The position numbers and the translations under genes were made by a program. Shown here one piece after another: positions 18,376 through 21,757 of a stretch of DNA of 64,000 nucleotides (positions within the stretch are counted from its first letter, which is position 1; each line of letters starts with the position of its first letter). This stretch comes from Eledone cirrhosa (Eukaryota). The stretch covers positions 349,432,001-349,496,000 of the forward strand of contig OZ024741.1 of NCBI GenBank assembly GCA_964016885.1. The letters are read 5' to 3'. The notes beneath the pieces are model-generated. The model ran no database searches. It was not told the origin of the DNA and saw nothing but the letters and a program-made list of their open reading frames with translations.

Positions 18376-19764
18376 GCATATATGATGCGGTACGGATATC
18401 TAAAATGCAAGCAATATAAACATTCTTCGCACCGTTCCCGCATAAACAGACAAAATGGTCGACAAGGCAGTGTACAACATCAACAACTATTATATAATTG
18501 TGATAAACAAAAGGTTATGTGGGCACTCAGCCAATATCAGACAAAATATCACTTGTCCGTGACAGGTACGTTAAATCAGGAGACCAAAGAACTTATGTCT
18601 GCCTCTCGTTGTGGTAACAAAGACAAAGATGATGGAGTATATGATCATATTAATTTAAAGAAAAAACACTTACGTCGTCTAGATCCAAGGCATGGCCGTG
18701 GCAACAGAGCCAATCGTCGATCAGATGTGAACAAACGACACAATAGAAGAAATTCAAATCCGACGAGAAAGCGATCGAAGAGGGAAACTTTTCGCAGGCT
18801 TAGTTCAAAGAACGAAACGGCTACCCCCGGGGACAAGATTTTAGCAAGAGACAAAAGATCCGTCTCATCAAATCTATCCCCCTTAATATCTTCTCATTTA
18901 CCTTTGACTTCCAAGCTGGCTTCTCTCTTGGTGGCGACTTTCTCTAAATTTCGAGCTACCAGAGGTCGCTGGAAACGGAATACTGCAAATGCTTATGTGA
19001 ACGTATCTCTGGCTAAATACAGTGATAATACAGCATCGAATTCCACTGAAACGATTGCTAATAGTACATCGTTAGCACATGAAATACCGAACAGTGTTAC
19101 AGTTATATCAAATGCATCATCATCATCATCATCATCATCATCACTACCATCATCATTTGAACGTAGACAACGGGCTAATAAAACTGCAAGTTATGGAAGA
19201 CAACAAACTGCGAATCTCCTTGTGCTGTCAAAGAAAACGGAAGTTAGATCGCAAAATACAATAGGAATAACAAAACAAACAGCAACACCTCTAAAGACAA
19301 CTACAGCGTCACAGCAATTATCACAAACACCAAAAATAATTTCTAATATTACACCTAAAATTACTAATCCATCTATAACGACAGCTAATAATAATAATAA
19401 TAATGATAATAATAATAACACACGCAGATTTGTACAGTATAGAATATCACAAACATACACAAAATTAAAAACAACACCAACAACTAAGTCGACAATTACA
19501 AATAAGAAAACACGGTTCAATAAATATGATAACCATGTACGGACGTTAAGTGACGAACAGCTATCGAAAGAGTTTTGGCTGGAGAAAGCATTTTCGAATG
19601 AAGTTGAACGAAAAGGCAGTGAAGCTAGACAACAGCAGCGGTCAGATTTTCACTCGTTCGCTTCTCAATCATTGTCGTCGTCGTCGTCATCATCACCATC
19701 AATATCACCATCATCGCCATCATCATCACCATCGTCGTCTACATCGCCTGTGTTTTCCTCATTG

Positions 19765-19795
<31 letters not shown>

Positions 19796-20123
19796 CTTCT
19801 TCTTCTTCTTCTTCTTCTTCTTCTTCTGTTGTGTTTCGGAAAAGCTCGGATGACAGTGATCCTGGTTCAAATGGTAGTGACCAACTTAGCAAGCATAGTG
19901 TGATCAACTTCAATAGTGCCACACACATTGTAAATAATAACACAAAAAACAACAACACATACATTCACAGTAACTACAACGGCAATAGCAACATCAGTAA
20001 TAATTACACAATCACCAATGAAAATTTCGACACAACCACTATTGCTACTCTTTCTATTACTACTACTTCTAATATTACTACTTCTATAGAAAAAATTGGG
20101 TTGGACAGTTATAGCAGGAATAA

Positions 20124-20164
<41 letters not shown>

Positions 20165-21757
20165 AGAGTGACATAAGTATTGCGAACGGGTTGGTCTATA
20201 CGACAAAAGCGGTCACCACGCGACCGTTGCGAAGAGGTACGCTGACTAGAAGTTATAGTCAAAGAAAGAGGAAAAATAGCAACTCGACTGCCGTAAGCGG
20301 TGGTAATCAGGTTCGTGTCACAGATGATCGTAGCAAAATCTTACGGAACAATAGAGATAGTAATAGTATTAGTAACAGTAATCAAATCCGTAGTGGTGGT
20401 AGCTTTGATATTAAGGATTGCACTGATATGTTGATAGCTCACAATAATAATAATAATAATAATAATAACGAGAAAGACAATTTTAAGGGAGAGAAAGGGC
20501 TCATATCAAACCCTAAACTAGAATTTCTAGGGTCAAGTTTAGGCTCTTCCCTATCGTCATTACCCTCGTCATCATCCGCATCGTCCTTATCACCATCATC
20601 GTCATCAATATCATCTTCATCACATGTAAGAACTTTTATTTCGCCGTTACCACGTGATACGCTATCATCATCCTCACCCTCCTCATCATTATCATCAACA
20701 CCGCATTCATCTTCAACACGTGAAAAACTGGCTTTCACATCGGTGCCTCACCTCACATCCGACACAGATCTTTCGACGACGGCCGCTGTGGCCACAGGTA
20801 AAAAAACGACTCAGTCAGAATCGACGACGAAGACAACGAGAGTAGCAACTGTAAAGACTGCAATACAGATAAACGAAGACAGAAGAATACCTATCGCTAC
20901 ATTAGCGACACCAGATTTTGGTACTAACGACCAAGACGTAAATGACGTCATATACTCAGACAGCGACAGTACTGTTAACAACAACAACAACAACAACAAT
21001 AACAATAATAATAATAATAATAATAATCAAAACTTAATATCTTCTCTACCTTTACATTACACGGAAACCGTTCCAGCTGGAATTAAATTGGGAGCTATTT
21101 CAATACACGAAGGAATAACCTCATATACTACTACAAACCACGACAGTAGCCAAAACACAAACTATTTAAATGATGGAGAATATATATTTCGCCAAAAACA
21201 TTTTATCAACTTGCTCAGTCAATCAGAAACGGCGAAACCTTCATCGCCTAAAATACCAACAGTGACTTATTCACCATTCTTTTTCAAAACAAAATCAAAA
21301 ATCCAATGGAGAGAGCGTCAGCAATCCCCAGCAACGTCGGCACCTCATTCTAGGTGGTGGAACGAACCCCACAGAGTTTCCTATATGCTGTCGGTTATCA
21401 GATATGGGGTTACACCGAAAGAGATGCAACATCGTACGCGAGAAAATTTTCTGCGGGAGACGGCGCGCCGTTTGAAAGAAATGGATTCTCAAAATTTCAA
21501 AGACTTGCCGGTGCACGAACGCAGACGCCGTTCACCAGTAGTGAACAAGGCGCATGGCTGGGGTCAAATGTTCAAAAAGAAAATAGTACGGTGGCGCTTG
21601 TTAGATTCGGGATACAGCAACCGCATCCCTGTGGAAGAGCAGAGAGCTACTCTTACACTCGCCTTCCGGATGTGGAACGAAGTTATTCCCTTAAACTTTG
21701 TGGAGGATATTACCAGTCACGTGAAGGATGTCGATATACATATTGCATTTGGTCAAG
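18376..21757 (+). CDS. MMP21: Internal coding exon of an MMP21-like matrix metalloproteinase (prodomain, long low-complexity insert, start of catalytic domain)
   Basis: Acceptor tttgtgtattttcag|GCA at 18375/6 and donor CAAG|gtaagc at 21757/8, with an open frame throughout. Prodomain YMMRYGYL...ALSQYQTKYHLSVTGTLNQET, cysteine switch SRCGNKD (18604-18624) and furin site RRRR|S (21520-21531). These are followed by FKKKIVRWRLL...LAFRMWNEVIPLNFVED...VDIHIAFGQG, which I recall closely resembles vertebrate MMP21 (WRLL...LAFRMWSEVTPLDFRED...DIKLGFGRG). Other exons were not identified in the window. Confidence 0.88.

Follow-up and report, generated by a model that had tools for sequence, protein, structure and literature searches.

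MMP21 is a latent preproenzyme that is activated by removal of its propeptide at a furin site, according to PMC2656525 and bioRxiv 10.1101/2024.10.13.618030, and an insertion between the cysteine switch and that site is a recognised feature of the family. In frog and human it measures 20–44 amino acids (aa) according to PMC2656525. Here, we describe an MMP21 gene of Eledone cirrhosa whose second exon lies in a 64-kb window (the whole stretch of DNA analysed: 64,000 nucleotides (nt) of contig OZ024741.1, assembly GCA_964016885.1, positions 349,432,001 to 349,496,000 of the forward strand) and encodes an insert of 965 aa at the same position. As in vertebrate MMP21 (human MMP21, Xenopus XMMP/Mmp21), there is a signal-peptide-like start, a switch-bearing propeptide, an insertion before the furin site, an HEXXHXXGXXH motif with a Met-turn, no hinge, and hemopexin repeats, features described in the same two sources. 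The differences are the length of the insert, the presence of extra candidate convertase sites inside it, and the switch, which reads SRCGNKD rather than PRCGXPD; RCG and the last D are unchanged, and the deviation does not exclude membership.

The molluscan MMP21s (models from Biomphalaria glabrata, XP_055878666.1, Bulinus truncatus, and Nucella lapillus) share with the Eledone protein an SRCGN-type switch and two helices ahead of the furin site. Of the short-insert rows, 15 of 20 also have a mid-insert site, [WVF][KR]R↓S (↓, cut), with a similar counterpart in Eledone. The molluscan inserts are only 80–152 aa long, whereas that of Eledone is about 10 times longer. The closest named relative is Argonauta hians, whose orthologue is 52% identical to the Biomphalaria protein. 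Two adjacent Argonauta models, GAB1603962.1 (P0030) and GAB1603961.1 (P0002), match the two ends of exon 2 (60% and 65% identity) and together hold at least ~320 aa of insert; the annotation treats them as separate genes, which hides the full length of the insert. Our analysis reveals that the Eledone gene is an intact octopod-type MMP21 with six exons and an intact zinc-binding motif, and that its insert is the most extreme case in a segment of MMP21 that has expanded repeatedly. We consider it probable (roughly 0.62) that the insert is a disordered propeptide spacer, which is tolerated, has grown by in-frame slippage, and is cut out by furin-type proteases at maturation.

The original prediction had placed an open insert of about 965 aa within a single 3.4-kb exon, and its coordinates proved exact (Table 1). 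In the open reading frame survey of the window, 18328–21780 was the only long non-repetitive frame (1,150 aa). No stop codon occurs within the insert, whereas 200 base shuffles contained 62 on average and never fewer than 41, and the other five frames contain 27–121 stops over the same interval. The repeats inside and outside the insert are of different kinds: there are eight trinucleotide runs (≥5 units) and no dinucleotide run (≥6 units) within it, against 3 and 772, respectively, in 56.7 kb of flank, which bears out the earlier observation that the insert holds trinucleotide repeats only. Its composition (S 20%, N 11%, T 10.5%) agrees with the description as Ser/Thr/Asn-rich, but the term mucin-like was loose. 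A mucin PTS domain is a long tandem-repeat array rich in Pro, Thr, and Ser, whereas S, T, and P make up 35% of the insert, where microsatellite arrays are short and long tandem repeats are absent. The supposed abundance of N-x-S/T sequons was not borne out either, with 17 found as compared to a shuffle mean of 30.7, and 16 against 18.6 expected after collapse of homopolymers; N-glycan enrichment was thus rejected. Likewise, we dismissed a conserved positive charge as a signal (+53 and +50 in the two long coleoid-type inserts), since base shuffles of the Eledone insert give +78, and its +53 is not above chance. The profile search assigned no Pfam family to the insert, and the ESM Atlas gave no usable match.

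Table 1. Features of MMP21 exon 2 and its insert (positions within the window; ↓, predicted cut)
Feature	Position	Strand	Remarks
MMP21 exon 2	18376..21757	+	3,382 nt, 1,127 codons, phase 0 to phase 1; splice signals in sequence
Prodomain helices, PG_binding_1-like	18376..18603	+	Weak Pfam match, E 0.02
Cysteine switch SRCGNKD	18604..18624	+	Exact coordinates; shared, in identical or similar form, with Biomphalaria, Bulinus, Argonauta, and others
965-aa low-complexity propeptide insert, ~106 kDa, predicted disordered	18625..21519	+	2,895 nt
Candidate furin-type site RKRSKR	18766..18783	+	Kept in Argonauta as RRSKR
Candidate furin-type site RDKR	18847..18858	+	Absent in Argonauta
24-aa motif ending RGRWKR↓N	18910..18981	+	Identical in Argonauta; predicted short helix and candidate convertase site
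Trinucleotide-run zone encoding poly-Ser and poly-Asn	19115..21027	+	
CAT run	19115..19156		
TAA run	19386..19418		
CTT run	19766..19827		
AGT run	20125..20164		
AAT run	20443..20468		
AAC/AAT run	20976..21027		
Ancestral conserved insert end, RWWNE... to ...RENFLRETARRLK...	21352..21519	+	Two predicted helices
Furin-type activation site RRRR↓S	21520..21531 (RRRRS 21520..21534)	+	
Catalytic domain start	21532..21757	+	Peptidase_M10, Pfam PF00413, E 3.1e-5; goes on in exon 3

Contigs of four of the 24 listed runs (X21, X1, X19, and X17) were compared with the window over 21035–21900. The runs carry no RNA label on record, and their RNA status was deduced from the splicing of the contigs. In all four, the contig parts from the genomic sequence at 21758, its next letters are the start of the catalytic exon at G000:C2:349636694, and intron depth is zero, so the contigs were counted as spliced transcripts; the exon 2 donor (AAG/GTAAGC at 21757, phase 1) is therefore in use. 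The X21 contig matches the window at 100% identity and retains 485 nt of the insert, while those of X1 and X19 keep 480 nt and that of X17 keeps 319 nt, at identities below 90%. Net insertions and deletions were 0, −6, −6, and 0 (X21, X1, X19, and X17), so that the frame is kept in the runs of three related species, and the 35 codons that changed between the window and X1 (13 synonymous, 22 non-synonymous) include no stop. These frame-preserving changes support the proposal of selection to keep the frame, and the retained 3′ part supports that of a giant propeptide. The X21 and X1 contigs start at the AAT run, and the X19 contig extends 424 letters past it. Run X21 has 0.96 of 369 words sampled over the whole of exon 2, so this run contains the insert's middle as well; three independent-looking runs contain 0.95–0.96 of the exon 2 words.

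The other five exons are found in other places on the same chromosome. Pfam placed the start of Peptidase_M10 downstream of the furin site and a weak PG_binding_1 match ahead of the switch, and the residues R1048, R1051, and S1052 of the RRRR↓S site are nearly invariant across 43 aligned proteins. Exon 3 (L002) is found 183 kb downstream in matching phase and contains HEIGHVLGLNH followed by the Met-turn SVM; the catalytic motif was not found elsewhere within the window. Three hemopexin exons follow, with 78–85% identity to the Argonauta P0002 model, which has three Pfam Hemopexin stretches, and the KIYG/VCTG junction between L002 and L003 leads from the catalytic to the hemopexin domain with no hinge. 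Exon 1, missed with a snail query and located with an Argonauta query, has 61 codons and a phase-0 donor, is 80% identical to P0030, and begins with a hydrophobic 20-residue stretch that is signal-peptide-like by eye. The phase of the predicted exon 2 acceptor (TTTCAG/GCA at 18376, phase 0) equals that of the exon 1 donor. The precursor would have a length of about 1,540 aa (61 + 1,127 + ~353). In a tree of the catalytic exon (26 rows, 114 columns, midpoint root), L002 groups with Argonauta and P0003 (100/96) among named MMP21s, and seven other matrix metalloproteinases (MMPs) of the same genome stand apart on a long branch (100/99). Motifs, splicing to the catalytic exon, and tree placement therefore all uphold the MMP21-like identity first suggested from the sequence. 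A catalytic-domain cysteine in GAHQNC of L002, shared with the Argonauta, snail, and salmon models (GRHLGC in salmon), may be the unique catalytic-domain cysteine mentioned in PMC2656525.

Some minor features of the locus can be added. Intron 2 runs from window position 21758 to G000:C2:349636693 (~183 kb), and the last four exons lie within ~14 kb. Exon 1 (L012:1501-1683) has a candidate convertase site, RSKR↓A, between the hydrophobic start and the prodomain, which is also present in P0030. Two MMP catalytic-exon matches elsewhere in the genome, L010 and L011 (G000:C28:124501945 and 135434352), have identical scores, lie on opposite strands 11 Mb apart, and represent either a recent duplicate or an assembly duplication.

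A second coleoid-type gene, P0001, is represented by an unspliced genomic frame, in which this exon carries an open insert of 928 aa. Its similarity to the Eledone insert is detectable in the last 75 aa only; the middles showed no detectable similarity (149 of 200 shuffles reach the score), and the few 30-aa windows that beat shuffles fall mostly on the same poly-Ser and poly-Asn spots. The original prediction had named frameshifts in orthologues as evidence against a coding insert. The frame is kept over the 3′ part compared in the runs (net changes 0 or −6), and over its full length the comparison consists of the open P0001 insert. Two spliced proteins resembling P0001, namely P0003 and P0010, keep ~130 aa ahead of the furin site; these are taken for squid or cuttlefish sequences. 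Among the other [ST]RCGN-type rows (20 after cluster duplicates were dropped, 19 of them with a scored furin site), the insert is short, with a median of 98 aa and a range of 80–152 aa. The median over all 80 scored MMP21-type rows, near-duplicates included, is 105 aa, and the window insert is the longest of them.

Vertebrate MMP21 had been said to have only a modest insert, which holds for the frog and human proteins as given in PMC2656525, but long inserts recur in vertebrate gene models. Such models include coho salmon (530 aa), hagfish (524 aa), skate (383 aa), sockeye (280 aa), lamprey (278 aa), and sawfish (204 aa), along with the tunicate Styela (251 aa); the lengths were taken from the gene models rather than from RNA. 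Like the Eledone insert, those of coho salmon (XP_031671681.1), hagfish (UPI00358E6322), skate (XP_078264411.1), and lamprey (CAM9637948.1) are of low complexity, occupy the same position, and end at the furin site. In contrast to the clear tandem peptide repeats of the salmon, hagfish, and skate models, the octopod insert lacks periodicity and has short homopolymers, and the vertebrate expansions look independent of the octopod one. The long inserts also vary in make-up, with net charges from +53 to −88 and S/T/P contents of 32–35% in both long coleoid-type inserts as compared to 49% in that of salmon. Repeat-rich inserts were seen in the vertebrate models P0091 and P0125 (salmon), P0110 (hagfish), P0115 (skate), and P0103 (lamprey); the salmon repeat resembles mucin (S/T/P 49%) and varies in copy number between two Oncorhynchus species. 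P0131, an MMP21-like model from Panulirus ornatus, has a long tandem-repeat stretch before the prodomain, not after the switch.

The switch had been singled out as deviant. It does differ from PRCGXPD, but it is not unusual, since SRCGNKD is the commonest non-PRCG switch among the proteins compared (22 SRCGNKD and 14 SRCGNSD, near-duplicates included). First-position changes of the switch have been found in echinoderm MMPs and further atypical switches in planarian MMPs, according to PMC8467561 and PMC3566077, respectively.

Conserved stretches were seen towards both ends of the insert. At the 5′ side, the 24-aa motif is identical between Eledone and Argonauta at 24 of 24 positions, while the preceding and following stretches match at 41 of 94 and 11 of 36 positions, respectively. 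The helix predicted in this motif covers model residues 180–187 at a pLDDT (AlphaFold confidence) of ~57, and the motif was undetected in P0001, where 321 of 1,000 shuffles score as well. At the 3′ side, the conserved insert end aligns with short-insert MMP21s and scores 137 against P0001, a value reached by none of 200 shuffles. Its helices ahead of the furin site (21382–21495, model residues 1002–1039) have a pLDDT of 80–92 and, judging from these alignments, are an ancestral part of the insert, common to short-insert relatives. The mid-insert site of these relatives, in which S, T, or A follows the cut, is similar to RGRWKR↓N of Eledone. The expansion therefore lies either between the ancestral mid-insert site and the helices, or upstream of RWWNE, should RWWNE descend from that site; the latter is where the alignment puts its descendant. 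Besides the two helices before the furin site, the confident parts of the AlphaFold model are the catalytic start and the prodomain helices (residues 43–56 and 67–75, pLDDT mostly >90), and 60 of 75 prodomain residues are identical to P0030. Order-promoting residues amount to 21% in the insert against 37–39% in the mature enzyme. FoldIndex was uninformative, as the folded prodomain was also scored disordered. Taken from the model, the insert is predicted to be disordered, with two conserved helical islands.

We propose that a precursor of ~1,540 aa would enter the secretory pathway, where furin-type proteases would make one cut at RRRR↓S and, probably, two more at RWKR↓N and RSKR↓E. These cuts would free a central piece of ~850 aa and leave an ordinary MMP21 with its catalytic and hemopexin domains. 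The spacer would tolerate growth because it is discarded on maturation; in a microsatellite-rich genome, where in-frame slippage is common, it may have grown by trinucleotide slippage and other in-frame insertions, with frameshifts and stops removed by selection and the sequence itself constrained weakly.

An assembly artefact or a dead gene copy is a most improbable source of the long frame, although exon 1 is found on the same strand 860 kb downstream of exon 2 (G000:C2:350313774-350313956). One 200-N gap lies 38 kb after exon 1 and another (window 3712–3911) 14.5 kb before exon 2. From this order and these flanking gaps, the contigs are deduced to be mis-ordered in the scaffold, so the local order around MMP21 is probably wrong; such gaps beside both exons agree better with mis-ordering than with decay of the gene. 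Neither the catalytic nor the hemopexin exons are disrupted, spliced RNA-type contigs exist, the share of exon 2 words is high in independent-looking runs, and the own-genome search gave a single match for the 3′ part of the exon. The original prediction had also considered an in-frame exitron; under such a reading, a substantial share of transcripts would lose the interior by splicing, and a normal-sized proMMP21 would be made beside the long form. An obligatory exitron is contradicted by the spliced contigs, which keep the 3′ part of the insert, as do P0003 and P0010 with their ~130 aa, and the divisibility of 2,895 by 3 lends it no support, being automatic between two in-frame motifs. Partial use is unlikely. 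A retained form is compatible with a spliced one, and position 20237 is an internal donor of moderate strength (score 4.4; the real donor, 6.6), but the best internal acceptor reaches only 1.5 against 4.9 for the real one, so that no internal pair matches the real sites; these scores are approximate, being based on generic weight tables. The internal splicing for which a check had been advised was not seen in any of the four runs, in which no joint was listed over 21035–21900, and X21 had no internal loose end, although contigs hide minor forms, and the high word share in X21 also speaks against it.

A more serious alternative, which we regard as possible but doubtful, is that the bulk of the insert is itself selected as a ~900-residue, probably O-glycosylated steric brush, matrix tether, or released polypeptide, which would set the place or time of coleoid MMP21 activation or the spread of the proenzyme. 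Several observations that weigh against a merely tolerated spacer belong here. The lengths of 965 and 928 aa in two lineages with unrelated middles are not expected of pure drift, although n is 2, and conservation is higher in the 24-aa motif than in the prodomain. RX[KR]R sites near the 5′ end of the insert number three against 0.5 expected, a count found in 1.25% of shuffles; with the invariant motif, such convertase-type sites would free the central ~850 aa in one piece. The S/T/P content is alike in both long coleoid-type inserts, S/T-rich expansions are repeated among vertebrates, and pN/pS (the ratio of non-synonymous to synonymous change per site) is below 1. This ratio, ~0.47 for the window against X1 (~57 synonymous and ~207 non-synonymous sites), comes from 40 of 121 difference rows over 21081–21342 (~260 nt) near the conserved end, a small sample that suggests weak constraint on the insert sequence. 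Low pLDDT (<50 for 912 of 1,126 residues, the insert almost throughout) is partly expected, since just one other row of the 43-row input alignment spans the insert middle. Besides, the contig comparison was confined to 21035–21900, with no contig shown spanning the exon and minor isoforms dropped. On the other side, the middle lacks conserved sequence, the 24-aa motif escapes detection in P0001, sequons are not enriched, the charge is below that expected from base composition, and charge varies widely among long inserts. For these reasons the tolerated, discarded spacer remains our preferred explanation. More speculative, and rather unlikely, is the extended proposal that the coleoid loop became a length-selected glycopolypeptide of ~900 residues, flanked on both sides by convertase sites and set free when the enzyme is activated, which tunes the range or timing of the protease as a brush, a tether, or a secreted product of its own, with salmon, hagfish, skates, and lampreys convergent on it.

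These results make the switch-to-furin position a recurrent expansion site across animals and raise a question of zymogen control, namely how a cysteine switch holds latency when the loop is nearly 1,000 residues long. Prodomain size could also affect the range of the protease, because Xenopus Mmp21 spreads over cells once secreted and has been proposed as a spreading morphogen (bioRxiv 10.1101/2024.10.13.618030). If the spacer is merely tolerated, it is a clean case of frame-filtered microsatellite growth in a coding exon. The long insert also explains why cephalopod MMP21 annotations are split or truncated, as in the two Argonauta models, and why RNA contigs break at the repeats. The literature search, outside which most subscription journals and supplements lay, found no paper on the long MMP21 insert, its tenfold coleoid expansion, or its recurrence. 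Pattern matches among metagenome contigs numbered 28, of which none was confirmed, so this search gave no second cephalopod DNA locus for a full dN/dS.

Mobile elements and simple repeats surround the exon. A LINE-type reverse-transcriptase frame (3103–3711, + strand; Pfam RVT_1, E 2.7e-24) is truncated by the assembly gap, a 408-aa frame (40314–41543, − strand; zf-RVT, E 6.1e-6) represents a LINE-type 3′ part amid AT-repeat arrays, and a mariner-like transposase fragment occurs at 34528–34944 (− strand; Pfam Transposase_1, E 5.2e-6). Long degenerate (AT)n arrays of up to 11.9 kb are found in the introns, at 41470–53365, 11232–14295, 38254–40052, and 3915–5431.

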